A DNA stretch of 35,439 bases from Candidatus Zambryskibacteria bacterium RIFCSPLOWO2_01_FULL_35_19 (GTDB lineage: Bacteria; Patescibacteriota; Minisyncoccia; Phycocordibacterales; WO2-35-19): positions 1 to 35,439 of the forward strand of contig MHWA01000014.1 of the NCBI GenBank assembly GCA_001825335.1, in the 5' to 3' direction. Positions within the stretch are counted from its first letter, which is position 1, and the number at the start of each line of letters is the position of its first letter. Shown one piece after another: positions 4,014-32,890 of the stretch. A program made the translations under genes and the position numbers. The notes beneath the pieces are model-generated. The model had not been told where the DNA came from. It did not search any database and was given only the letters and a program-made list of their open reading frames with translations.

Positions 4014-5297
4014 TTATTTCTTAGAAATCTTCTCTTTACCTCCCATATAAGGACGGAGCACTTCAGGAATAACAATAGAGCCGTCGGCTTGTTGATAGTT
4101 TTCTATAATACCAATAAGTGGCCTACCAGAAAGAGCGGTGTTGTTTAAGGAGTGAGCAAACTTTAATTTACCATCTTCGTCTCTATAACGAATATTTAAT
4201 CTGCGTGTTTGAAAATCATGAAAATATGAAGCCGAACCAGTTTCTCTGTATTTGTTTTCTCCCGGCAACCACACTTCAATATCATATTTTTTAACTTGAC
4301 CAAGACCAAGATCTCCTGCACAATTGATAACTACATGATACGGCAATCCTAGAGCTTGCATAATCTCTTCTGTATTTGACTGTATTTCTTCATGGTGCTT
4401 AACGGATTCTGTATGACTAGCTTCACACAAGATGACTTGCTCAAATTTATAAAATTCATGCACTCGGAGAATTCCTTTTGTATCTTTACCATGCGCTCCA
4501 GCTTCACGCCTATAAGCATTAGAAAATCCGAGCATCTTTTTTGGTAAATCTTTTTTATCCAAAATTTCATCCATAAAATAACTCATCATAGCCACTTCTG
4601 CGGTGCCCGAAAGATACTCGCCATCTTGAGTTTTATATAAATCTTCTTCTCCCTGTGGCAAATATCCAGTCCCTATAAACGGTTCTCTTCTAAGAAGGGA
4701 TGGGACAATCATCGGCACAAAATCCTTTTTTTTATTTTGAAAAAAATCATTTACAAATTGCCATAAAGCAAATTGCAGTTTCGCCCCGTCGCCGATCAAA
4801 AAGTATCCTCTAAATCCAGCGACCTTGGCACCTCTTTCCAAATCAATCATACCTAAAGCCAACATCAAATCTATATGATCTTTAGGTGTAAAACTAAACT
4901 CTGGGATCTGGCCTACTTTTTTTATTTCTTGATTACTCTCTTCATCACTGCCTTCAGGCACCGACATATCGGGGATGTTTGGCACAGTCACCATCAGCTT
5001 TTGCCATTCAGTCATCACCTCTTTTAATTCTTCTTCTTTTTTTTGTATTTTTTCTTTTAGGGGTAGTGTTTCTTCTATTAATCTCCTTTTTTCTGCGATA
5101 TTTCCCGCTTGTCCAAATTTGGCTATCTCTTCACTTGCTTTATTTTGTTTGGCTTTTTTTTCTTCAAGATCTTGACTTATGGCCTTCCTTTTATCATCTA
5201 TTTCAATAAGTAAATTAACATCAAAATCAATCTGTTTTTTCTTGGCGCCTTCTTGTATTAACGCGATATTTTCTCTTATAAATTTGATGTCTAACAT
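4014..5297 (-). CDS. serS: Seryl-tRNA synthetase
   Basis: MLDIKFIREN start, a coiled-coil N-arm and class II core motifs (FRREAGAHGKDTKGILRVHEF, GSASYFHDFQTRR...). I trimmed the ORF-track start at 5339 to the internal ATG at 5297 that matches the canonical SerRS N-terminus. Confidence 0.93.
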   Translation of the reverse strand: MLDIKFIRENIALIQEGAKKKQIDFDVNLLIEIDDKRKAISQDLEEKKAKQNKASEEIAKFGQAGNIAEKRRLIEETLPLKEKIQKKEEELKEVMTEWQKLMVTVPNIPDMSVPEGSDEESNQEIKKVGQIPEFSFTPKDHIDLMLALGMIDLERGAKVAGFRGYFLIGDGAKLQFALWQFVNDFFQNKKKDFVPMIVPSLLRREPFIGTGYLPQGEEDLYKTQDGEYLSGTAEVAMMSYFMDEILDKKDLPKKMLGFSNAYRREAGAHGKDTKGILRVHEFYKFEQVILCEASHTESVKHHEEIQSNTEEIMQALGLPYHVVINCAGDLGLGQVKKYDIEVWLPGENKYRETGSASYFHDFQTRRLNIRYRDEDGKLKFAHSLNNTALSGRPLIGIIENYQQADGSIVIPEVLRPYMGGKEKISKK

Positions 5298-5367
5298 AAT
5301 TTTAAATTTCGTAACCCTTATTTCGTTACTCGTTTTCATTTTACCATTTGCTATAATAAAAACAAAT

Positions 5368-6258
5368 ATGCCTTATAAAATAAACACCCTCAAAAAAGCC
5401 GACTGGCCCCCTCTTTTAAAAGAGATTAATCAACTTCCGAATAAGCTTTTTTATGTTGGCAAAGTGGCAGATTGGTCTCGGAAACTTCTTTGCGTAGTAG
5501 GGGCTCGCAAAAATACAAATTATGGTAGAGAAGCCGTTGAGACTTTTATAGAGAGTTTGCGTGGCTACCCGATTACCATTGTTTCTGGTTTGGCTTTAGG
5601 TATAGACTCTATCGCTCATCGAGCAGCTCTTAAAAACAACCTTCCCACTATCGCCGTCCCCGGTTCTGGACTTTCGCTTGAAGTTTTACATCCTCAATCT
5701 CATACTCACTTAGCAACAGAGATTATTGAAAAAGGCGGAATGATGATGAATGAATTTGAACCAGAATTTAAAGCTACTCAATGGAGTTTTCCACAAAGAA
5801 ATCGTATTATGGCGGGAATGAGTCATGCCACTTTAGTCATAGAAGCCGAACAAAAGTCAGGCACACTCATCACTGCAAGACTAGCCACCGAATACAACCG
5901 CGATGTTTTGGCCTTACCCGGCAGTATTTTTAATACCACAAGTCAAGGGCCTCATATGCTTATTCGTTTGGGAGCTACACCTATCCGTGATAGTAATGAT
6001 ATTTTGGAAGCTCTGCATTTGGAATCCCACTCCGCCTCGTCAGACTCGGCTTCGCGGGACGAGGAAAAATATTTTGATTGTTCGGAAAAAGAGATGCTAA
6101 TAATTAAACTTTTAATAGAACCGTTGGAGCGTGATGAAATTTTGCGACAAATAAATACTAAACATCAAATCCCTATTGGGGAAATCCAAACTTTCCTCTC
6201 TCTCCTCGAGCTCAAAGGCCTTATTAAAGAATCTCTTGGAGAAATCCGCCTCACTTAA
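5368..6258 (+). CDS. dprA: DNA processing protein DprA/Smf
   Basis: Rossmann-fold DprA motifs are present (VVGARKNTNYG, IVSGLALGIDSIAHRAAL, GTLITARLATEYNRDVLALPG). The start is set at ATG 5368, because the ORF-track extension overlaps serS antisense. A TATAAT box at 5352-5357 lies just upstream. Confidence 0.9.
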   Translation: MPYKINTLKKADWPPLLKEINQLPNKLFYVGKVADWSRKLLCVVGARKNTNYGREAVETFIESLRGYPITIVSGLALGIDSIAHRAALKNNLPTIAVPGSGLSLEVLHPQSHTHLATEIIEKGGMMMNEFEPEFKATQWSFPQRNRIMAGMSHATLVIEAEQKSGTLITARLATEYNRDVLALPGSIFNTTSQGPHMLIRLGATPIRDSNDILEALHLESHSASSDSASRDEEKYFDCSEKEMLIIKLLIEPLERDEILRQINTKHQIPIGEIQTFLSLLELKGLIKESLGEIRLT

Positions 6259-6268
6259 TCTTAAAATG

Positions 6269-6293
6269 AAATACAATGGGCGCCATTGTATTT
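6269..6293. repeat. REP-like hairpin copy 1 (aaatacaatgg-gcg-ccattgtattt). It could also act as the dprA terminator.
   Basis: 11-bp perfect stem with a 3-nt GCG loop followed by a T-run. The same core recurs at 6947-6973 and 7915-7933 with the loop reverse-complemented (CGC). Confidence 0.7.
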
Positions 6294-6315
6294 TTAGTTG
6301 TGGTATAATTTTATT

Positions 6316-6936
6316 ATGAATAATAGGGATTATAAAGATTTTGCCAGAGATGAGATTTATCATATCTACAACAGAGGTGTTGGGAAGATGAAAATATTTT
6401 TAGATGAGATGGATTATAAGGTGTTTATGTCCAGATTAAAAGAAAATTTATTCTCAAAACTTATAGATTATTCCCTTTTACCAAAATATGCGACCAGAAG
6501 AAAAACTTTACCACCGAATTCTTTTGATTTGATTTCATACTGTTTGATGCCAAATCACTTTCATTTATTAGTAAGACAAAATACAGACTTACCTATAACA
6601 CAACTGATACTAAAAATATGCACTGGTTATTCAAAATATTTTAATAAAAAATATGATCGAGTTGGTGTAGTTTTTCAAGATAGATTTAAAGCAGTGAGAA
6701 TAAAAAAGAACAATCAGTTGTTATGGGTTTCTTACTACATACACAAAAATCCCGTTGACAGCAAATTAGTTAAATATCCAGAACATTATAAGTGGAGTAG
6801 TTTTTCAGAATATAAAAATTTAGTTTTTGAACCTATCTGTAAAAAAGACATCATAACTAAACAATTTAAAGAAACTTCTGATAAAAATATGGAATCAGAA
6901 TTAATATCCAATCTTGATTTGCTGATAGATTATTAG
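6316..6936 (+). CDS. REP-associated tyrosine transposase (RAYT) / IS200-IS605 TnpA-like HUH Y1 transposase
   Basis: HUH motif in LMPNHFHLLV and catalytic-Tyr region YYIHKNPV. About 206 aa from ATG 6316. An extended -10 (TGgTATAAT, 6301-6309) sits 6 nt before the ATG. The gene is flanked by inverted copies of the same hairpin. Confidence 0.8.
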   Translation: MNNRDYKDFARDEIYHIYNRGVGKMKIFLDEMDYKVFMSRLKENLFSKLIDYSLLPKYATRRKTLPPNSFDLISYCLMPNHFHLLVRQNTDLPITQLILKICTGYSKYFNKKYDRVGVVFQDRFKAVRIKKNNQLLWVSYYIHKNPVDSKLVKYPEHYKWSSFSEYKNLVFEPICKKDIITKQFKETSDKNMESELISNLDLLIDY

Positions 6937-6946
6937 AACACACTCA

Positions 6947-6973
6947 AAAATACAATGGCGCCCATTGTATTTT
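6947..6973. repeat. REP-like hairpin copy 2 (aaaatacaatgg-cgc-ccattgtatttt), inverted relative to copy 1
   Basis: Same stem as copy 1, with loop CGC instead of GCG, which marks the opposite orientation. A T-run follows. Confidence 0.7.
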
Positions 6974-7068
6974 TGTTAAGGTAAATTTTAATAGTAGTTG
7001 ACAATAATCTTCAATTGTTATTTACTTATAGATAGAAGCCCTCAGGGGTTAATAAAAAGGAGGTATAA

Positions 7069-7233
7069 ATGAAGTGGACGTGGAAGGTTTTTGGACGACT
7101 TTTGTATTATGTCGTCTTGAACATCCTCACAGGAGGAGTGGCTTTTTTTATTTGGCTACATAAAGAAAGGAAAGTAGCCGCAGAGGAGGAAAAGAAATAT
7201 CTCCTGAGAACATTCGGGTCGGGGAGGTACTAG
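7069..7233 (+). CDS. Small membrane protein of 54 aa, absent from the ORF track
   Basis: ATG preceded by aaaggagg at SD distance. Translation: MKWTWKVFGRLLYYVVLNILTGGVAFFIWLHKERKVAAEEEKKYLLRTFGSGRY, with one TM helix. It lies in a GC-richer segment. Confidence 0.5.
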   Translation: MKWTWKVFGRLLYYVVLNILTGGVAFFIWLHKERKVAAEEEKKYLLRTFGSGRY

Positions 7234-7234
7234 T

Positions 7235-7336
7235 ATGGAATACCAAACCATATGGCGGGATTTTTTCGCCGCAGGGGCAATCATCGCCCTGGTATTAATG
7301 TTACTAGAACCTTATCTAAGACCTCCAAAAGAATAG
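7235..7336 (+). CDS. Small membrane peptide of 33 aa, absent from the ORF track
   Basis: ATG lies 1 nt after the previous stop and is preceded by ggggaggt. Translation: MEYQTIWRDFFAAGAIIALVLMLLEPYLRPPKE, with one TM helix. Confidence 0.35.
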   Translation: MEYQTIWRDFFAAGAIIALVLMLLEPYLRPPKE

Positions 7337-7359
7337 TGTCAATGTTCAACCCTTGGCAC

Positions 7360-7389
7360 TTGACAAAAGAATATTAAAGGTGCTATAAT
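7360..7389 (+). promoter_or_regulatory. Near-consensus sigma70-type promoter (TTGACA-18 nt-TATAAT)
   Basis: TTGACA at 7360-7365 and TATAAT at 7384-7389, followed by an aggagga SD and ATG 7409. Confidence 0.6.
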
Positions 7390-7408
7390 TAGTGATAGGA
7401 GGACAAAC

Positions 7409-7792
7409 ATGTTTGAAACACTGAATTCTTTTGTTTTGACCATTCTGGCCGTCATGGCCGTAGTGGTCTACACTGGAAAAGAAATGCAACATCGTGGTAT
7501 TCTGAAGGTCAAACGACCTACCCACGTCCGACGATTTCGTTCCGCAGAGGCGGGACAAGACCTCATTGAATACGCCTTGATGGCCGGCTTTGTGGCAGTT
7601 GCAGCCGGTGCAATTCTGCCGAACGTGGTAGACGATATCAAAATCGTATACCAAAGGATTGGCGTCATAATGGAAACGACGGACGTCAATTTTTTTTCTA
7701 GTGAGATAACAGCAACAAGGATCGCCTGTGCGATCCTGGCAGTCCTGTTTTTGGGGTTGATAGTCGTTCGACGACGAAAAAACCTTGACTAG
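7409..7792 (+). CDS. Flp/Fap-family (type IVb, Tad-type) prepilin-like protein with extra N- and C-terminal hydrophobic segments
   Basis: AEAG|QDLIEYALMAGFVAVAAGAI matches the Flp G-XXXXEY processing motif followed by a hydrophobic helix. The leader is unusually long at 48 aa. The C-terminus is a TM helix plus RRRKNLD. The SD is strong. Confidence 0.6.
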   Translation: MFETLNSFVLTILAVMAVVVYTGKEMQHRGILKVKRPTHVRRFRSAEAGQDLIEYALMAGFVAVAAGAILPNVVDDIKIVYQRIGVIMETTDVNFFSSEITATRIACAILAVLFLGLIVVRRRKNLD

Positions 7793-7855
7793 CTCAACCC
7801 CACGGGTGGCTCGCGGAGCTTAATTAAGCAATGCGAGCCACCAACGAGATGATCC

Positions 7856-7890
7856 GCTCCGTATCAATCCTTGATACGGAGCTATTGTTT
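7856..7890 (+). terminator. Rho-independent terminator
   Basis: gctccgtatcaa-tcc-ttgatacggagc forms a 12-bp stem followed by a T-rich tract. It is preceded by a second hairpin, gtggctcgc...gcgagccac (7807-7841). Confidence 0.6.
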
Positions 7891-7914
7891 ATAAAATTTT
7901 TTCTTCCTAAAAAA

Positions 7915-7933
7915 TACAATGGCGCCCATTGTA
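7915..7933. repeat. REP-like hairpin copy 3 (tacaatgg-cgc-ccattgta), same orientation as copy 2
   Basis: The 19-nt core is identical to copy 2. No T-run follows, so it is not simply a terminator. Confidence 0.65.
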
Positions 7934-8011
7934 AAAAGTATCAAGGTTGAACCTTGACGTTTTGTTTACAAATTTTGCTTTTTTTGTTTTTATAACTTAT
8001 TCTGTATAAAT

Positions 8012-10219
8012 ATGAAATTACTAATAGTAGAGTCCCCAGCCAAAGCAAAAACCATTGGCAAATATGTAGGCAGTGATTATGAAGTCGTCGCTAGCGTCGG
8101 TCATATTCGTGATTTGCCAAAATCAAATAAAAAAGCCATTGATATAGAAGGTGGTTTTATTCCGCATTATGAAATTTCCAAAGGTAAAGAAAGAGTGGTG
8201 GCTGAAATAAGACAATTGGCCAAAAAAGCCGACGAGATATTGCTAGCCACCGACCCCGACCGAGAAGGAGAAGCCATCGCTTGGCATTTAGCTGAAGAGA
8301 TTAAAAAATTGAAGATTAAAGATTTAAAGGTTAGAAGAGTTAGTTATCATGAAATTACAAAAGAAGCTATTGAAGAGGCATTGAAACACCCACGAGATAT
8401 AGATCAAAATTTGAGAAAAGCTCAAGAAGCTCGCCGAGTTTTGGATCGCCTCGTTGGTTATGACCTTTCTGGTTTAATTTGGAAAAAGGTGCGCTACGGA
8501 CTTTCGGCTGGCCGAGTCCAATCCCCCGCTTTGCGTATTTTAATGGAAAAAGAAAGAGAAATCAGAGCTTTTAAACCAGAGACCTTTTTTGTTATTTCTG
8601 CCAAACTAGAAACTGAAAAAAAAGAGAGCTTTACTGCCGTTTGTGAAGAAGAACCAAAAACAAAAAAAGAAGCAGACGAAATTTATGATGTGGCAAAAAA
8701 TGGAAAATGGAAAGTTCTTGACGTTGTAGAAACAGAAACAAAAAGAAGTCCAAGGGCTCCATTTACCACATCCACACTCCAACAAACCGCAAGCACAAGA
8801 CTTGGTTTTTCACCCAAAAGGACAATGATGACTGCTCAAAAACTTTACGAAGCAGGACATATCACTTATATGCGCACAGACAGTGCAACAATGGCAGGAA
8901 GCGCTCTTCTTCAGATTAAACAAGTTGTTTCAAAAAAATACGGAGCAAATTTGCATCAAACAAGAGTATTCAAAACAAAATCCAAAAATGCACAGGAAGC
9001 TCACGAAGCAATCAGACCAACTCATTTTGAAAAAGAAAATATAGGTCACAGCGAAGACCAAAAAAGATTATATAAATTGATTTGGGAAAGATCTGTAAGT
9101 AGTCAAATGAAAGATGCAAAAGTAATGAGAACAAAAATAATAACTGAAGTAAGCCCCTCGACTTCGCTCGGGACAGAAAAATTTGTACCAAATTTTTCTG
9201 CAAACGGCTCTAGAATTTTAGAGGATGGTTGGCTTCTTTGTGATAGTAGAGCAAAAAGAGAAGATGTGATTCTTCCAAAATTAAAACAAAATGATGATTT
9301 AAATTTACTTAATATTGAAAAATTAGAAAAACAAACAGAACCACCAAACAGATATAGCGAGGCAGGACTCATTAAAGAACTAGAAAAAAGAGGCATCGGT
9401 AGACCTTCAACTTATGCTTCTACTATAAACACCATAATAGAAAGAGAGTATGTAGAAAAAGATGGCAAAACTTTAAAACCAACTGATACTGGAGATGTTG
9501 TTTCTACATTTCTAGAAGATAACTTTGAAGAATATATAAGCGACACATTTACTGCAGAAATGGAAGATGAATTAGATGATATAGCTCTCGGAAAAAGAGA
9601 ATACGAACCAACCTTGCGAGAATTTTATAAACCTTTCTTGAAAGAAATAAAAGATAAAGAAAAGACCGCCAAATTAACTACTTTGGGTGACGCTGACCCA
9701 AAATTAAAATGCCCACTTTGTCATTCTGGTATGATCATTAAACTCGGTAGAGGAGGTAAATTTTTAAGTTGTGATAAATTTCCAGAATGTTCTGGCATGA
9801 GAAATATTGATGGTAGTGAAATAAAAGAGGCAGAAGCTTTAGGTACTGATCCAGAAACAAAATTGCCAGTATTTGTAATGGACGGCAGATTTGGTCCATA
9901 TATTCAACTTGGAGTAAAAGATGAAAAAAACAAAAAACCAAGAAGATCCAGTATACCAAAAGATAAAAATCCAAATGAAGTTACTTTAGAAGAAGCTCTT
10001 AAATATTTGAGTCTACCAAGAGAGCTCGGGCCATATCCGGAAACTGGAGAAACGATTTCAGCCAATGTTGGCAGATTTGGACCATATATAGTTCATCAAA
10101 AAGATTTTCGTTCACTTAAAGAAGATGATGTTTATACTATCACTTTAGAGAGAGCCATAGAAATATTGAAAGAGCCCAAAAAAGTCGGTCGCCGTGGTTG
10201 GAAAAAGAAAACAAAATAA
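8012..10219 (+). CDS. topA: DNA topoisomerase I
   Basis: TOPRIM N-terminus (LLIVESPAKAKTIGKY, ATDPDREGEAIAWH), active-site region ITYMRTDS and a C-terminal Zn ribbon (CPLCHSGMIIK...CDKFPEC). Confidence 0.95.
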   Translation: MKLLIVESPAKAKTIGKYVGSDYEVVASVGHIRDLPKSNKKAIDIEGGFIPHYEISKGKERVVAEIRQLAKKADEILLATDPDREGEAIAWHLAEEIKKLKIKDLKVRRVSYHEITKEAIEEALKHPRDIDQNLRKAQEARRVLDRLVGYDLSGLIWKKVRYGLSAGRVQSPALRILMEKEREIRAFKPETFFVISAKLETEKKESFTAVCEEEPKTKKEADEIYDVAKNGKWKVLDVVETETKRSPRAPFTTSTLQQTASTRLGFSPKRTMMTAQKLYEAGHITYMRTDSATMAGSALLQIKQVVSKKYGANLHQTRVFKTKSKNAQEAHEAIRPTHFEKENIGHSEDQKRLYKLIWERSVSSQMKDAKVMRTKIITEVSPSTSLGTEKFVPNFSANGSRILEDGWLLCDSRAKREDVILPKLKQNDDLNLLNIEKLEKQTEPPNRYSEAGLIKELEKRGIGRPSTYASTINTIIEREYVEKDGKTLKPTDTGDVVSTFLEDNFEEYISDTFTAEMEDELDDIALGKREYEPTLREFYKPFLKEIKDKEKTAKLTTLGDADPKLKCPLCHSGMIIKLGRGGKFLSCDKFPECSGMRNIDGSEIKEAEALGTDPETKLPVFVMDGRFGPYIQLGVKDEKNKKPRRSSIPKDKNPNEVTLEEALKYLSLPRELGPYPETGETISANVGRFGPYIVHQKDFRSLKEDDVYTITLERAIEILKEPKKVGRRGWKKKTK

Positions 10220-10250
10220 CTTGCAAAAATAAATAAAAGATTATAATAAA

Positions 10251-11636
10251 ATGGAAAATGATGTAGAAAAAATAATCGCCACTCTAAAAAAAACAACCAA
10301 AGAAGAAAAAGAGCTCATAAGAAAAGCTTACCGATTTGCCAAAACGGCGCATCAAGGTCAAAAAAGAAATAGTGGTGAACCGTATTTCAACCATTTGTTT
10401 GAAACTGCCAAAAATATCGCCGAACTTGATATGGATGCGGTATCAATCTCTTCTGGTTTTTTGCATGATGTTTTGGAAGATACTGATACAAAACCAGAAA
10501 CAATAGAAAAAGAATTTGGAAAAGAAATTTTATTTATAGTTGAGGGAGTGTCCAAAATCGGCAACTTACGATACCACGGAGCAGATCGTTACAATGAAGC
10601 TTTGCGTAAACTACTTTTTGCTACTTCTAAAGATTTGCGAGTGTTGATAGTCAAGTTTTGTGACAGACTTCATAATATGGAGACTCTCTCCTTTGTGCCA
10701 AAAGAAAAACAAGAGCGTATTGCCAGAGAGACCTTAGAAATATATGTGCCCATCGCTTATAGATTGGGTATCAGAAAACTATCAAGAAGACTTGAAGATT
10801 TGGCCTTCCCTTTTGTTGACAAAGAAGGTTTTGACGAAATATCTTCACTTTTAAAAGAAAGCCATGATGAAAGATTGGAAAGTTTGGAAAAATTTAGAAA
10901 AAAAGTTTCTAAAGAATTGGTAGATTCGGGTCTTACTAATTTTCATTCTGATTACAGAGTTAAAACTATTTATAGTCTTTATAAAAAATATCTAAGATAT
11001 AAAAAAGATATTGAGAAAATAAATGATATCTTGGCTATGAGATTAACGGTGGCAAAAACTGAAGATTGTTATAGAGCCCTTGGTATCATTCACTCTGTTT
11101 GGAAACCTCAACCCGGCAAAATAAAAGACTACATTGCTTTCCCAAAACAAAATGGCTACCAAAGTCTACATACCACAGTTTTTACTGGTAATGGCGACTT
11201 AGTAGAAATACAAATACGAACAGAAGAAATGCATAAAGAAGCAGAGTATGGTATCGCTGCCCACTCTCTATATAAAGCTGGAGAAAAGAATAAAAAAGAG
11301 ATTATGCCGTGGATACAGACTATGCTCAATTATTCTGTAAATGAAATAAAGAAAAATTTCTTAAGCCAGAGAATTTTTGTCTTTACTCCTAAAGGAGATG
11401 TGATTGACTTGCCAGTAGGAGCTTCGGCTATTGATTTTGCTTATAATATACACTCCGATATTGGAAACAAAATGGCAGGAGTAAAAATAGATGGCAAACT
11501 TTCTGCCATCAATAGCATTCTTAAAGATAGAGAAATAGTAGAAGTTATTACCAAAAAATCAGCTAAACCAAATCGTAAATGGTTAGAATATGCCAAAACT
11601 GCTTTGGCCAAAAAACATATCAAAAACAATACTTAG
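10251..11636 (+). CDS. rel: Short RelA/SpoT-homolog (p)ppGpp synthetase/hydrolase with HD, synthetase and TGS domains and no C-terminal ACT region
   Basis: HD motif HDVLEDT, synthetase motif GYQSLHTTV...EIQIRT, and TGS region FVFTPKGDVIDLPVGASAIDFAY. Only 461 aa. Confidence 0.88.
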   Translation: MENDVEKIIATLKKTTKEEKELIRKAYRFAKTAHQGQKRNSGEPYFNHLFETAKNIAELDMDAVSISSGFLHDVLEDTDTKPETIEKEFGKEILFIVEGVSKIGNLRYHGADRYNEALRKLLFATSKDLRVLIVKFCDRLHNMETLSFVPKEKQERIARETLEIYVPIAYRLGIRKLSRRLEDLAFPFVDKEGFDEISSLLKESHDERLESLEKFRKKVSKELVDSGLTNFHSDYRVKTIYSLYKKYLRYKKDIEKINDILAMRLTVAKTEDCYRALGIIHSVWKPQPGKIKDYIAFPKQNGYQSLHTTVFTGNGDLVEIQIRTEEMHKEAEYGIAAHSLYKAGEKNKKEIMPWIQTMLNYSVNEIKKNFLSQRIFVFTPKGDVIDLPVGASAIDFAYNIHSDIGNKMAGVKIDGKLSAINSILKDREIVEVITKKSAKPNRKWLEYAKTALAKKHIKNNT

Positions 11637-29199: not shown

Positions 29200-29553
29200 T
29201 TATTCAACTTCATTAGGAATAAGATTGCCAACATCAGGAGCACCTGTATCTGTGCCTATTCCTACATTTTCACCGATAAATCGAACCAATCCCCAGACAG
29301 AGGCCATCACAAAGAGAGCCACCACTCCCCAAATCATTGTCTTTTTGGCTTGTTCCTTGTCATGATCTGCGCCAAAAATGTATTTAACCAAACCATAAAA
29401 GAATCCAAGAATAGCGAGGGCAAAAACAATTGGTATGATTATATCCACAATACCACCCAAATCTTCAATTAAACCTCTTAGTGCAGTTAAACCTTGAGCA
29501 AAAGAGACAAGAGGGAAAGCCAAAGCTCCAACAATTAACGCTAATTTTTTCAT
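29200..29553 (-). CDS. VirB2/TrbC-like small pilin paralog 2
   Basis: Signal peptide ending SFAQ|G, then IIPIVFALAILGFFYGLVKYIFGADHDKEQAKKTMIWGVVALFVMASVWGLV. Confidence 0.65.
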   Translation of the reverse strand: MKKLALIVGALAFPLVSFAQGLTALRGLIEDLGGIVDIIIPIVFALAILGFFYGLVKYIFGADHDKEQAKKTMIWGVVALFVMASVWGLVRFIGENVGIGTDTGAPDVGNLIPNEVE

Positions 29554-29666
29554 ATAATTTTAAATTAATAATTAATAATTAAATAAACGACCATTTTTAA
29601 TTTGCTTTATAATAATATCATTTTTATACTTAATTTCAACCAAAAGTAATCCACAACGTAATATAA

Positions 29667-30065
29667 TTAAGGCGAAGCGGCATTCCAGGCTTCAGTATTA
29701 TCAGCTCCACCATCCCCACCAATAGTTGGTATAGGTATAGAATTTGGTCCAGAGCCACCCAAAAGCTCACCTTGAAGGAAAGCGACGAGTCCCCAGACAG
29801 AGGCCATCACAAAGAGAGCTACTATACCCCACACCATTACTTTTTTGCCTTCATCTTTTTCACTACCAGCAGAGCGTATATACTTGGCAATACCCCAGAA
29901 AAAGAAAAGTAGGGCTAGAATAAAAGCAAGCGGGACCAGCATATCTGTCACAATATATTTAGCTTCCCAAAATAATTTTCCAGTCTCCTTTAGTTGGGCA
30001 AAAGAAAAAACGGGAAATAAAACAAATACGGAAGATAAAATGATTTTATAAATTTTATTTAACAT
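29667..30065 (-). CDS. VirB2/TrbC-like small pilin paralog 3
   Basis: Signal peptide ending SFAQ|L, then WGIAKYIRSAGSEKDEGKKVMVWGIVALFVMASVWGLV. It shares a 30-nt identical tract with paralog 2. Confidence 0.65.
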   Translation of the reverse strand: MLNKIYKIILSSVFVLFPVFSFAQLKETGKLFWEAKYIVTDMLVPLAFILALLFFFWGIAKYIRSAGSEKDEGKKVMVWGIVALFVMASVWGLVAFLQGELLGGSGPNSIPIPTIGGDGGADNTEAWNAASP

Positions 30066-30083
30066 AAGTTTTAAATATTAATA

Positions 30084-30443
30084 TTAATAAATTTTAGTGG
30101 TAATTATATCTCTGGGAATTGCTGGATTTTCAACTTCTGGAATACCAAGCTCACTTTGGATAAAGGTAATTATACCCCAAATTGAAAAAGCTACAAAGAG
30201 ACCGACGATACCCCAAATCATAATCTTCTTTCCTTCTTCGGCTCCTTTTTCATCACCAGCACTGGTCCTTATGTATTTGGCTACTCCCCAGAAAAAATAA
30301 AAGAGAGCTAAAGCAAAAGCAAGTGGTATAAGCACTTCGCTAACTATGCCAGAGGCCGCATCTATAAGGTCAATAACTCCAGCGGCAGATGCAAATAATG
30401 GAAAAAAGAGAAGTATTACTATTATTTTTGATATTTTTATCAT
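30084..30443 (-). CDS. VirB2/TrbC-like small pilin paralog 4
   Basis: Signal peptide ending ASAA|G, then WGVAKYIRTSAGDEKGAEEGKKIMIWGIVGLFVAFSIWGII. Confidence 0.65.
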   Translation of the reverse strand: MIKISKIIVILLFFPLFASAAGVIDLIDAASGIVSEVLIPLAFALALFYFFWGVAKYIRTSAGDEKGAEEGKKIMIWGIVGLFVAFSIWGIITFIQSELGIPEVENPAIPRDIITTKIY

Positions 30444-30446
30444 ATA

Positions 30447-30719
30447 TTAAAAATGAATTTGAGGAATAATCACTCCTCCTCTAAAACCAAATTCACCCAT
30501 AGTAAAAGAAATTATACCCCAAATACTTACCAAAATAAGTAATCCTACAATCCCCCAGATAATTAAATTTTTGCTATCTTTTATTTCTTTTTCACTACCG
30601 GCAGATTTTATAAACTTGACTATACCCAAAACAAATACAAGAAAGGCCACCGTTCCTAAAAATGGTATTATTCTAAGCCCTATATTTATAAACAAACTTA
30701 TAATCGCTGTTAAATCCAT
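30447..30719 (-). CDS. VirB2/TrbC-like small pilin paralog 5
   Basis: LGIVKFIKSAGSEKEIKDSKNLIIWGIVGLLILVSIWGII. It is separated from its neighbours by only 3-nt and 2-nt gaps. Confidence 0.6.
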   Translation of the reverse strand: MDLTAIISLFINIGLRIIPFLGTVAFLVFVLGIVKFIKSAGSEKEIKDSKNLIIWGIVGLLILVSIWGIISFTMGEFGFRGGVIIPQIHF

Positions 30720-30721
30720 TT

Positions 30722-31156
30722 TTATACTCTTAATTGACTAATAGTTTTGCCGATGGCTTGCGATATAATCCAAGCACCTAAAAGTATGGCCGCACCTATA
30801 ACCGCCCAGAGTAGAGCATCCTTTGCTTTAGTTATTTGTGCCGCATCACCTCTAGCCGTTACAAAAAGAAATCCAGCATACATAACCATTACCACAGCTA
30901 CCACACTACCGATAGGTATTAAAATATCTTTAATAATGGTGGTTATCAAACCTTCAATGGTATTTTCTTTAAATGGATTTTTTATTTCTATTGATGAATT
31001 TATTGGGGGGACAGAACCAGTAGTCCCTCCACCATCGCCTCCCGTATCACCTCCACCATCGCCATTTGCGGCCAACACAAACATCGGCATTACTAAAACT
31101 ATGACAACTACAATTGGAATTAAAATTTTAAAAAAACTTTTTGAAAATTTAAACAT
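30722..31156 (-). CDS. VirB2/TrbC-like small pilin paralog 6, with a Gly/Asp-rich N-terminal extension
   Basis: Signal/TM segment, then GDGGGDTGGDGGGTTG, then YAGFLFVTARGDAAQITKAKDALLWAVIGAAILLGAWII. Confidence 0.6.
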   Translation of the reverse strand: MFKFSKSFFKILIPIVVVIVLVMPMFVLAANGDGGGDTGGDGGGTTGSVPPINSSIEIKNPFKENTIEGLITTIIKDILIPIGSVVAVVMVMYAGFLFVTARGDAAQITKAKDALLWAVIGAAILLGAWIISQAIGKTISQLRV

Positions 31157-31181
31157 AATTTTATATATAAAAATTGATTAA

Positions 31182-31589
31182 TTATTTGACTCCTTGGACT
31201 GGCACTGCATCTTTAAAACCATTTTTATCACTCAAAAGAGCATTTGTGATAGTGGTTACAATAATCCAAGCTGATAAAATAAAAACAAAACCAATAAAAA
31301 CTTTCTTCATTGTATTTATAGACTCTGATCTTTTGCCTGGATTATCGCCATGTATCATCATCTTTATACCAGCCCAAGCAAAAACACCCGCCGCTATCGG
31401 GACTGAAATCTTTATAATCCAATCTATTACATTATTTATCAGTATCAATAAATCATCATAACCGCATTCGTCACTAAGACCACCATCGCAAGGTATAAAA
31501 CCACCTTGAGCAGAAACTAAAAAAGGTATCATAATAAAAAGAAAAAATAACGAAAAAATTAAAATATTTTTGATTAATGGTTTTTTCAT
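31182..31589 (-). CDS. VirB2/TrbC-like small pilin paralog 7, with a Cys-containing N-terminal region
   Basis: Signal peptide ending VSAQ|G, then CDGGLSDEC, then WAGIKMMIHGDNPGKRSESINTMKKVFIGFVFILSAWII. Its start overlaps the upstream SBP stop by 4 nt. Confidence 0.6.
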   Translation of the reverse strand: MKKPLIKNILIFSLFFLFIMIPFLVSAQGGFIPCDGGLSDECGYDDLLILINNVIDWIIKISVPIAAGVFAWAGIKMMIHGDNPGKRSESINTMKKVFIGFVFILSAWIIVTTITNALLSDKNGFKDAVPVQGVK

Positions 31590-32890
31590 TTTAATAATAA
31601 GGTAGAGAGTTCTCTATGAGCTCGATTGACAGCTTCTCCCGTCCTAGCTCTACCGCTTGTGATTGATTCTATCATATTTCTAAAGACGATATCACTTTCT
31701 CCTTTGGACGGATCAAGCCAAGCTTTGGCTCGGATAGCACTATCATAGAAAACACTCTCATATGAATTGATTTGTTTCTGTCCTAAAAGATCTCTTCTTG
31801 CTGGTGGCAATCTTAAAGCTTTACTAAAAGCCATCGCCCCTTCTTTGCCAGTTAAAATAGAAATAACAGAAAAAGCGGCGCTTATCTTTTTAGAAGCTTT
31901 GGTGATAGCAAAAGAATTAAAATTAGCATAAGAGACATTAACTCCGCCCTCCCTAGAAATAGGCACTGATGCCACATCAAAATTTAGATTTGGATTTTTA
32001 ATTTGAAGATTGCTTATTTCATTAGCAAAACCAAAATACAAAGCCAAGTCACCTCCTAAAAAGTAGTTGGTAGAATTATTTAAAGAACGATTCCAAGAGT
32101 ATGAGGATTTGGCTGGATTGCTAAATTCGGTATAAAAATTGACTGCCGCTTCAGCTGGAATGGTTGATTTGTTGAAAGAGTCAGCAAAGACGCTTAAAGC
32201 TTTGTTGTTACTGCCCCAGATAGTAACAGGCGTCCCCGCTTGCATTGCCAAGTTTATAACAATTTCTTTGGCATGAGAGATGTTTCCAAATTCACCAAAA
32301 GCTACCAAGCTTCTTGATATATTTAAAGCACCATCTTTTTTAGATATCTGATTGGCTAAATTATAAAACTCATCCCAATATTTTGGAGGTTCAGTGATTT
32401 TAACTTCAGTAAAGATAGACCTGTTCCAATACATAACCAGTGGGTTGACCGTTATGGGCAAAGCTAAAAATCCTTCTGGCGCCATATAAATTTCAGCTCC
32501 TTCTATAAAAGAGTCTTTAAATTGCCTAGTAGTAAAAGCTTCATACGGAATAGCAAATATTTTGTTGCGGTGCTTGAGTATCTTTTCACTTCCCAACATA
32601 AAGATATCTGGACCATTACCAGAAGCTAAAGCTTCTATAAAACTAGCATCAAATTCTTCTTCAGTTTTCTGAACATATTGAAGAGTAAATTCTTTGCTTT
32701 GGTGAAGAGACGTTGCTTTGATAGCTTCATTGAAAGTGGTTTGAGGCATAGTGCCCCATATCTCTATTGAGATTGCATTTCCAAGACTCCCTCTATAAGA
32801 AGAAAATATTATCACTCCTACGATTAGAAATACTCCAAAAATCCCAGTCAAAACCAATTGAAACTTTGTCATACTTATATTATATAACAT
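31586..32890 (-). CDS. Membrane-anchored extracellular solute-binding protein (ABC SBP family 1-like), orphan
   Basis: N-terminal TM anchor followed by an SBP_bac_1-like layout (IEIWGTMP..., GNGPDIFMLGS, LPITVNPLVMYWNR, YWDEF). No permease or ATPase genes are adjacent. An alternative start is at 32872. Confidence 0.65.
   Translation of the reverse strand: MLYNISMTKFQLVLTGIFGVFLIVGVIIFSSYRGSLGNAISIEIWGTMPQTTFNEAIKATSLHQSKEFTLQYVQKTEEEFDASFIEALASGNGPDIFMLGSEKILKHRNKIFAIPYEAFTTRQFKDSFIEGAEIYMAPEGFLALPITVNPLVMYWNRSIFTEVKITEPPKYWDEFYNLANQISKKDGALNISRSLVAFGEFGNISHAKEIVINLAMQAGTPVTIWGSNNKALSVFADSFNKSTIPAEAAVNFYTEFSNPAKSSYSWNRSLNNSTNYFLGGDLALYFGFANEISNLQIKNPNLNFDVASVPISREGGVNVSYANFNSFAITKASKKISAAFSVISILTGKEGAMAFSKALRLPPARRDLLGQKQINSYESVFYDSAIRAKAWLDPSKGESDIVFRNMIESITSGRARTGEAVNRAHRELSTLLLK

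Follow-up and report, generated by a model that had tools for sequence, protein, structure and literature searches.

The 35,439-nt contig MHWA01000014.1 of Candidatus Zambryskibacteria bacterium RIFCSPLOWO2_01_FULL_35_19, a member of the candidate phyla radiation (CPR; Patescibacteria), carries between dprA and topA an intact gene for a HUH protein of the single-tyrosine (Y1) type. We refer to this whole stretch as the window. The protein resembles the REP-associated tyrosine transposases, or RAYTs (REP, repetitive extragenic palindrome), and its gene is bracketed by two copies of a short perfect hairpin, with a third copy farther downstream (Table 1). The arrangement recalls a REPtron, in which a RAYT gene is accompanied by its cognate palindromes, and we argue below that it probably works as one.

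Table 1. Features of the locus, in window coordinates (nt)
Feature	Position	Strand	Description
dprA	5179/5368-6258		Upstream neighbour
Hairpin copy 1	6269-6293 (core 6272-6290)		AAATACAATGG-GCG-CCATTGTATTT; 11-bp stem including A/T runs, then T5
Inverted repeat around gene	6269-6309 versus 6932-6972		41 nt, 88%; right arm covers stop codon and copy 2
Extended -10-like element	6301-6309	+	TGGTATAAT, 6 nt ahead of ATG; putative promoter
RAYT-like HUH/Y1 gene	6316-6936	+	Intact ORF (open reading frame), 206 aa, between copies 1 and 2
Hairpin copy 2	6945-6975 (core 6951-6969)		CAAAAATACAATGG-CGC-CCATTGTATTTTTG; 14-bp stem, 8 nt past HUH gene stop codon
Hairpin-bounded segment	6976-7914	+	GC 43% (window 36%); small membrane-protein ORFs 7069-7233, 7237-7338, 7409-7792
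Hairpin copy 3	7915-7933		TACAATGG-CGC-CCATTGTA; orientation as copy 2; T-run on minus strand only
Second-type hairpin	7941-7957		TCAAGGTTGAACCTTGA, 8 nt past copy 3; terminator-like on plus strand
topA	8012-10219		Downstream neighbour

The window holds exactly three TACAATGG-NNN-CCATTGTA sites, a count unchanged by a tolerance of up to three mismatches or of variable loops; the chance expectation is 0.01 (mean of 100 dinucleotide-preserving shuffles, none of which gave three). Copy 1 lies 10 nt past the dprA stop codon and 22 nt ahead of the ATG of the HUH gene. Because the stem is a perfect palindrome, orientation has to be read from the loop and the flanks, by which copy 1 is the reverse complement of copies 2 and 3 (loop GCG versus CGC). 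From its core through the T-run (6272-6295), copy 1 complements 7910-7933 at every position (100%), and copies 2 and 3 are direct repeats over 27 nt (7907-7933 versus 6943-6969, 96% identity). Folded as single-stranded DNA, copies 1, 2, and 3 reach -8.8, -12.6, and -6.0 kcal/mol (z -4.8, -7.4, and -4.8), with 0 of 200 shuffles as good. Several assemblies made independently from Rifle groundwater samples contain the identical locus with all three hairpins, for example GCA_000990895.1 on contig LBQO01000004.1. Contigs matching genes near the window ends brought no new hairpin copies and end at about the same places, and Rfam returned nothing credible in 5900-8300.

Each of the three copies has a T-run on one or both strands. 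Copies 1 and 2, with A-runs before and T-runs after the stem, resemble bidirectional intrinsic terminators placed just past dprA and the HUH gene, and judging by this A-run/stem/T-run form they probably terminate transcription of these two genes. A stronger claim would be that the hairpins are ordinary intrinsic terminators and nothing else, duplicated locally, their association with the HUH gene having no functional meaning. The placement of copies 1 and 2, the small number of copies in 35 kb, and a terminator scan that detects copies 2 and 3 are all consistent with it. Copy 3 fits it poorly, as its T-run lies on a strand without an upstream gene and it stands behind a separate, better terminator. 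With three sites, every one of them bearing a T-run, the plain terminator family that the initial annotation had considered could not be dismissed from the window alone; only the comparative data presented below dismiss it.

The HUH protein

Y1_Tnp is the sole Pfam domain found in the protein (40.5 bits, cut-off 23), and REP_Tyr_transpos (NF047646; 51.3 bits, E 1.1e-13) is its sole NCBIfam match. Its motifs are NHFH with H81-F-H83, FQ (FQD) at 120-121, YIHKNP at 141-146 with the catalytic Tyr141, and a KWSS tail. In an alignment of 32 homologues H81, H83, F120-Q121, Y141, H143, N145, and P146 are invariant, which suggests that catalysis has been retained. Class 2, the RAYT side of the family, is marked by Y-x3-NP and the IS200 transposases by Y-x3-Q (PMC6006769, Table 1); by this measure the protein carries the class-2 motif and not that of IS200. 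The combination of NH[YF]H, FQ, Y[IV]HLNP, and SS is listed under subclass 2.1, which corresponds to Bertels group 1 (PMC6006769).

Structural comparisons point in the same direction. A profile search of the PDB matched only Escherichia coli TnpAREP (4ER8), weakly (E 0.29), and returned no IS200-family TnpA at E <=1. The AlphaFold2 (AF2) model of the 206-aa protein (predicted local distance difference test 81.7, predicted template-modelling score 0.79, low confidence over the C-terminal 20 residues) is matched best in Foldseek by 4ER8 (E 7.6e-7, template-modelling (TM) score 0.68), with ISDra2, IS608, and IS200 transposase structures ranking next at TM ~0.6. The Pfam scan of the protein found none of the C-terminal helix-turn-helix (HTH)-like domains DnaA_C, HTH_23, and HTH_28. 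Taken together, the Y motif, the 4ER8 match, and an NCBIfam score beneath the curated cut-off indicate a RAYT-type Y1 HUH enzyme that is remote and lies outside the E. coli-type equivalog. The initial annotation had read the locus as a gene with the HUH and Y signatures of a RAYT, set among three hairpins of one core with the flanking pair inverted. The Y1_Tnp match and the conservation of HFH (81-83) and YIHKNP (141-146), the Y-x3-NP motif and fold that favor a RAYT over an IS200 transposase, the shuffle expectation, and the opposed loops within a 41-nt inverted repeat bear this description out.

Gene-hairpin linkage and dispersal across the CPR

The window locus belongs to a large family found across the CPR. 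A profile search at E <=1e-30 yielded 1,498 clusters at 50% identity, and we compared the best 80 of at least 595 loci confirmed among at least 599 pattern matches in GTDB representatives, one genome per species (L-numbers below label the individual loci or contigs compared). These homologues span Paceibacteria, Microgenomates, Saccharibacteria, Doudnabacteria, and others, together with a few metagenome-assembled genomes (MAGs) labelled as DPANN archaea. Nearly all 80 carry the motif set NHFH, FQ, YIHxNP, and SS tail, with YIHxNP itself present in most.

A gene counted as linked when each of its two 150-nt flanks contained a perfect stem of 6 bp or more and the two stems agreed; 675 ORFs from these loci, each 150 aa or longer, served as controls. 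The same stem stood on both sides of the gene at 40 of the 73 homologue loci with complete flanks (55%) and at 12 of the 675 control ORFs (1.8%; odds ratio 67, Fisher p 2e-35). The hairpin sequence is specific to the lineage, as in TGCAGAAGG-GCA-CCTTCTGCA, ATGTCAAAGG-CGC-CCTTTGACAT, ATCACACAC-CCG-GTGTGTGAT, and TGACAAGGG-GGG-CCCTTGTCA. Many of these hairpins lack a T-run, as in the GC-richer CPR genomes, so the plain-terminator reading fails for the family. The stem is moreover kept among relatives at 68-81% identity and, for other hairpin types, across genera, which is unlike the behavior of terminators. As the sole explanation of the hairpins, termination is largely refuted by the T-run-less examples and the enrichment over control ORFs, and we consider it highly improbable.

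Conservation within the window's own clade concerns pairing as well as sequence. The nearest relatives (68-81% identity) retain the ACAATGG stem while their loops vary: TCG in L268 (81% identity), CCG and GCG in L269 (80%), and TTA in L270 (68%). Among the nine hairpins of the clade, three stem pairs have changed on both sides, for example GG..CC to GA..TC upstream in L269, and only 1 of 500 shuffles reached their covariation score. Across 33 loci, protein identity correlates with the identity of the inner seven stem bases (Mantel p ~0.01); arm identity averages 0.87 at protein identities of at least 60% against a background of ~0.35, a relationship that partly reflects common descent. Partial tandem duplications of the left arm, sometimes including the loop, lie beside full hairpins in L268 (945-990, where AAGAAGAAATACAATGG occurs twice), L269 (1665-1705), L109 (~5335-5387), and L130 (~1400-1454), and could be footprints of cleavage and rejoining or products of slippage.

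Compensatory changes of this kind keep dyad symmetry as well as pairing, and they are also what one would expect if the palindromes were double-stranded operators for a dimeric regulator (the C-terminal part of the HUH protein or another factor) that controlled the gene and a few promoters without cleavage or mobility. Two features of the promoter regions favor such an operator. Copy 1 is followed by TTTTTAGTTGTGGTATAAT, 6 nt, and the ATG; the -10-like element there is kept in L268 and L269, and copy 1 overlaps the corresponding -35 region. In L025 a promoter-like TGTGGTATAAT lies within a 44-nt repeat that flanks the gene on both sides. On the other hand, copies are found past the 3' end of the gene too, and many stand alone at a distance from promoters; none of the 32 aligned homologues has lost the catalytic HUH and Tyr residues; and single-stranded REPs are the only form that E. 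coli TnpAREP binds (PMC3333891). The indel described below, which is bounded by hairpins, and the non-orthologous hairpins of L113 and L144 likewise point to DNA rearrangement. We therefore regard an operator without enzymatic function as very unlikely. The conserved -10-like element nevertheless makes a secondary role in transcription and autoregulation plausible for hairpins that would act chiefly as substrates of the HUH protein. From its position, the element would give a leaderless or near-leaderless mRNA starting at 6316, and the overlap of copy 1 with the -35 region suggests a possible route to autoregulation.

The hairpins are also dispersed. We scanned two related types over 185,579 representative genomes, with a chance expectation of ~9 sites per pattern by our own arithmetic (596 Gb / 4^18). 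ATCACACAC-N3-GTGTGTGAT gave 56 sites in 52 stretches, nearly all from CPR Microgenomates, and 50 of the 56 have the loop CCG or CGG. This type flanks the gene in the closed 1.05-Mb Beckwithbacteria genome CP011210, which has 4 sites; the Amesbacteria MAG MEXE01 has 13, and several other genomes have 3-6 each. At most one pair per genome flanks a homologue, and the remainder are solitary and mostly outside long ORFs. ATGTCAAAG-N5-CTTTGACAT, common to several Paceibacteria loci, was found in at least 119 stretches, overwhelmingly CPR and mostly Paceibacteria, the window's own class; about one third of the stretches listed adjoin a homologue, and the recurrent loops form reverse-complement pairs (ACGGT/ACCGT, AGACA/TGTCT, GTGCC/GGCAC). 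Some sites are orthologous between species, such as the gene locus of L097 and L127 and a solitary hairpin of L134 and L139, while L113 and L144 carry hairpins at differing intergenic positions inside syntenic regions. These retained and shifted sites indicate elements that are dispersed, old, and occasionally relocated.

Searches with the exact 19-mer of the window reached no further. GTDB representatives, among which the window's species is evidently not included, gave four single matches, which is the chance level, one of them inside a coding sequence of a Moraniibacteria MAG. JGI metagenome contigs gave six single matches, none from the window's locus, with that of L010 inside coding sequence. 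Others of these matches (L005 1311-1329, L007 258-276, L009 8471-8489, L006 895-913) belong to a different organism of 45% GC from a JGI groundwater sample, in which the identical 19-nt core including the loop appears as GTACAATGGCGCCCATTGTAC. L005 and L007 share 162 nt (94%) from a point ~14 nt ahead of the hairpin, which looks like the end of a repeated element. In the Omnitrophota locus L089 (3470-17960), ten CAAGACCGGGTCTTG copies surround a homologue within 20 kb in groups of two or three spaced by 20-60 nt, an array that resembles a bacterial interspersed mosaic element (BIME) and has a copy number above that of CPR genomes. The core AAGGTTNAACCTT of the second-type hairpin beside copy 3 is that of a dispersed, gene-flanking hairpin of other CPR homologue loci (six copies in L070, four in L096). 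This hairpin could be a remnant of another hairpin family, part of a BIME-like pairing, or a product of chance, and its membership in the unit is uncertain.

Orientation and mobility bear on a further alternative, in which hairpin, gene, and hairpin form an autonomous insertion sequence (IS) of the IS200/IS605 type that moves whole through a single-stranded circle, the hairpins serving as left and right ends. In the family, flanking hairpins are direct at ~25 loci and inverted at ~7, so that the window's inverted state, which rests mainly on the 3-nt loop, is the minority condition and most relatives look like IS200 ends. The position of the gene varies: dprA or topA lies within 10 kb in only 4 of 80 loci, by which we also rejected a fixed housekeeping position maintained through synteny, and in L021 and L026 the gene sits between homologues of the window genes at ~32.2-32.7 kb and 33.0 kb, a place that in the window is an 87-nt spacer with no copy. 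The gene's GC content of 27% against 36% for the window, and a fold that also matches the IS608 and ISDra2 TnpA structures, fit an IS as well. Several observations argue otherwise. The protein has Y-x3-NP rather than Y-x3-Q, NHFH as its HUH motif, and a family length of ~215 aa rather than ~150, and the PDB profile search yielded TnpAREP to the exclusion of IS200-family TnpA. There is one gene copy in the window; paralogues within one genome (L022 and L023, L051 and L073) are only 47-50% identical; solitary hairpins outnumber gene-linked ones; and orthologous loci are kept across species (L097 versus L127). The inverted flanking hairpins of the window are unfit for single-strand excision, and no cleavage or guide sequence is conserved beside the hairpins. 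An autonomous IS thus appears to us an unlikely account of the locus.

Other observations on the family concern its distribution. L045, L084, and L088 (matches at ~10001-10570 or 9401-9886) are homologues with flanking hairpins in Nanoarchaeia- and Bathyarchaeia-labelled MAGs, for which transfer between CPR and DPANN or mis-binning could be responsible; only IS200-type members have been reported from Archaea (PMC6006769). Viral contigs contained five distant relatives among 2.9 million, and we rejected a phage-borne origin on that count. Over the coding region from HUH to FQ (6526-6667), metagenome contig depth at 85% likeness is 145-549, compared with 5-25 beside it, suggesting that many other members of the groundwater community carry homologues near-identical at the nucleotide level there.

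The hairpin-bounded segment and a proposed mechanism

The segment between copies 2 and 3 has its own promoter (7360-7389, a perfect 12/12 sigma-70-type match) and terminator (7856-7882). Its three small ORFs have only sub-threshold Pfam matches, among them a weak Flp/Fap-pilin-like stretch in ORF 7409-7792 (E 0.1). The close relative L268 aligns to 6272-6958 (79%) and resumes directly at 7973, just upstream of topA, with one hairpin at the junction. About 1 kb of the window (6959-7972) is therefore absent from L268, and copies 2 and 3 lie at its start and near its end, which identifies a hairpin-bounded indel. Either the segment was inserted beside a resident hairpin or it was lost in L268 by recombination between hairpins. 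On the upstream side, L269 keeps dprA beside the hairpin and L268 has unrelated sequence, so both synteny breaks of this small clade coincide with hairpins. Metagenome contigs from eight further runs covering 6100-8200 contained no clean joint of copies 2 and 3; the apparent joints have only 18-40 nt on either side and derive from homologues in other organisms. Another contig, L011 (1-2549 against window 5912-8403), is 100% identical up to 7071 and 94.5% identical from 7081, across a scaffold gap; this change ~100 nt past copy 2 may reflect recombination between strains close to the hairpin, or chimeric scaffolding.

Given the anatomy of the locus, the motifs and fold of the protein, the family-wide linkage, the lineage-specific hairpins with compensatory changes, the solitary copies in related genomes, and the indel, we propose that the locus is a RAYT-type gene with cognate hairpins that work in the manner of a REPtron, a reading to which we assign a probability of roughly 0.7. 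In a single-stranded region, such as the lagging-strand template, DNA under repair, or DNA taken up by the cell, the 8-bp TACAATGG/CCATTGTA stem would form with its 3-nt G/C loop and be extended by the A/T runs. The protein would bind this stem, and the HUH-bound metal and Tyr141 would cut and rejoin the single strand beside the hairpin. Recognition and cleavage are proposed here by analogy with E. coli TnpAREP, which binds, cleaves, and recombines single-stranded REPs and not duplex DNA (PMC3333891). Over evolutionary time, such activity in trans could leave solitary hairpins at other sites in the genome and create or eliminate segments bounded by hairpins; the ~1-kb small-ORF stretch from copy 2 to copy 3 may be an example.

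Several results weigh against this proposal. Within the window the hairpin exists in only three copies, all inside 1.7 kb, with none in the remaining 33 kb, and all three have a T-run on one strand, so that a purely transcriptional role remains compatible with the single locus. In the family, 45% of homologue loci fail the strict flanking test, although imperfect stems (the upstream copy in L026 differs by two bases) suggest that this test undercounts. A perfect symmetric palindrome would be equally expected from selection by a dimeric binder of double-stranded DNA. The related genomes contain 4-13 hairpins each, one to two orders of magnitude below classical REPs. The NCBIfam score of the protein falls short of the curated RAYT equivalog cut-off of 80 bits. 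None of the three window copies has a GTAG (GT[AG]G) foot beside it, and the conserved guide sequence that the initial annotation had raised did not emerge, as the flanks of 56 and 124 related hairpins carry at most 0.42 bits per position. The REPtron organization claimed in that annotation consequently stands in part: cognate flanking hairpins are a property of the family and are dispersed in relatives, while the GTAG foot, the imperfect stem, and the high copy number of classical systems have no counterpart here.

The genomic neighborhood adds a further element. The HUH gene adjoins dprA in the window clade and in two distant lineages (window 5179-6936, L269 90-1662, L073 9991-11552, L095 889-2836), which is commoner than for a random neighbour by a rough estimate (~0.2 expected in 80 loci); dprA encodes a single-stranded-DNA recombination mediator of transformation. 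Because the gene stands beside dprA in several lineages, coupling to natural transformation is conceivable. A more expansive version of our proposal would see a phylum-wide, long-lived HUH-nuclease and hairpin system of the CPR, perhaps also of DPANN, that acts on single-stranded DNA to insert, delete, or exchange hairpin-bounded cassettes and to spread portable terminator and promoter modules, providing cassette shuffling, possibly coupled to transformation, in repeat-poor minimal genomes. We consider this extension decidedly unlikely at present. Elsewhere in the window, at ~29200-31600 on the minus strand, at least five small paralogous genes with T4SS_pilin/TrbC-like Pfam matches lie beside a solute-binding protein gene and give rise to the direct-repeat families D2 and D3.

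Most of what is known about RAYT/REP systems comes from Proteobacteria, Cyanobacteria, and Bacteroidetes; CPR genomes are considered streamlined, with few repeats and little mobile DNA. The literature that we searched contained no paper linking RAYT, REP, REPtron, or IS200 biology with CPR taxa, apart from a passing K07491 match near rbcL in a Nanobdellota genome, in agreement with the earlier statement that no such unit was known from genomes of this type. If our proposal is correct, the lineage-specific short perfect hairpins offer simple natural protein-hairpin pairs for studies of DNA recognition by Y1 HUH enzymes, and the family is a candidate cause of rearrangements in organisms still out of reach of genetic manipulation. 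It also has consequences for annotation, as many such genes are recorded just as 'transposase' and their hairpins could pass for plain terminators.

Comparison with known systems

RAYTs and REPtrons are used here in the sense of Nunvar 2010, Ton-Hoang 2012, and Bertels & Rainey 2011. With the IS200/IS605 elements IS608 and ISDra2, the CPR loci share the Y1 HUH fold, subterminal hairpins on both sides of tnpA, and, in most relatives, their direct orientation. Features of those elements not seen here are Y-x3-Q, a length of ~150 aa, multiple near-identical copies, guide-tetranucleotide cleavage sites, and, often, a tnpB partner.

Subclass 2.6 and class 3 resemble the CPR loci in having flanking hairpins without GT[AG]G, with copies elsewhere in the host genome and 'atypical secondary structures' (PMC6006769). 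They come, however, from Bacteroidetes, and from Planctomycetes, Acidobacteria, and Proteobacteria, and have the motifs WQ with YIH[QN]NP, or YV..EQ. Published descriptions call their structures weaker; the CPR stems are perfect. No CPR group is mentioned in that survey (PMC6006769).

By motifs, compared with Table 1 of PMC6006769 only, the closest relatives are subclass 2.1 (Bertels group 1) and the TIRYTs, which share NH[YF]H, FQ, Y[IV]HxNP, and the SS tail. A wide, patchy taxonomy, few divergent paralogues, and an inverted repeat around the gene, 41 nt long in the window, are further likenesses. Flanking repeats of group 1, too, are low in genomic abundance, at about 12 occurrences (PMC5581495). 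Subclass 2.1 was reported to lack REP-like structures near the gene (PMC6006769), and in this the CPR loci differ. TIRtron units with their TIRYT genes (Di Nocera 2013) have GGGGWSAS inverted repeats (PMC3733652), a motif that we did not find beside the window gene. Typical members are also longer (median 238 aa), with DnaA_C or HTH-like C-terminal domains, whereas the 206-aa window protein has none detected.

The E. coli REPtron, in which tnpAREP (rayT/yafM; TnpA-Y1 subclass 2.2, 4ER8) is flanked by REP/BIME sequences, differs in its palindromes and their number. REPs are imperfect palindromes of 30-40 nt, and the CPR stem is perfect, 8-14 bp long, with a 3-nt loop in the window; E. coli has ~300-600 copies and a typical REP more than 100 per genome, compared with few per CPR genome. 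The CPR unit has no GTAG foot, its hairpins are mostly direct in relatives, and the window protein, at 14% identity to 4ER8, scores below the equivalog cut-off. The likenesses lie in the HUH/Y1 fold with Y-x3-NP, in a single-copy gene whose cognate palindromes, inverted in the window, also occur elsewhere in the genome (here, in related genomes), and in palindromes that can double as 3' structures of transcripts. We propose, in sum, that the locus is a CPR version of the REPtron or TIRtron, atypical in its short perfect stem, its low copy number, the missing foot, and the mostly direct hairpins of its relatives.

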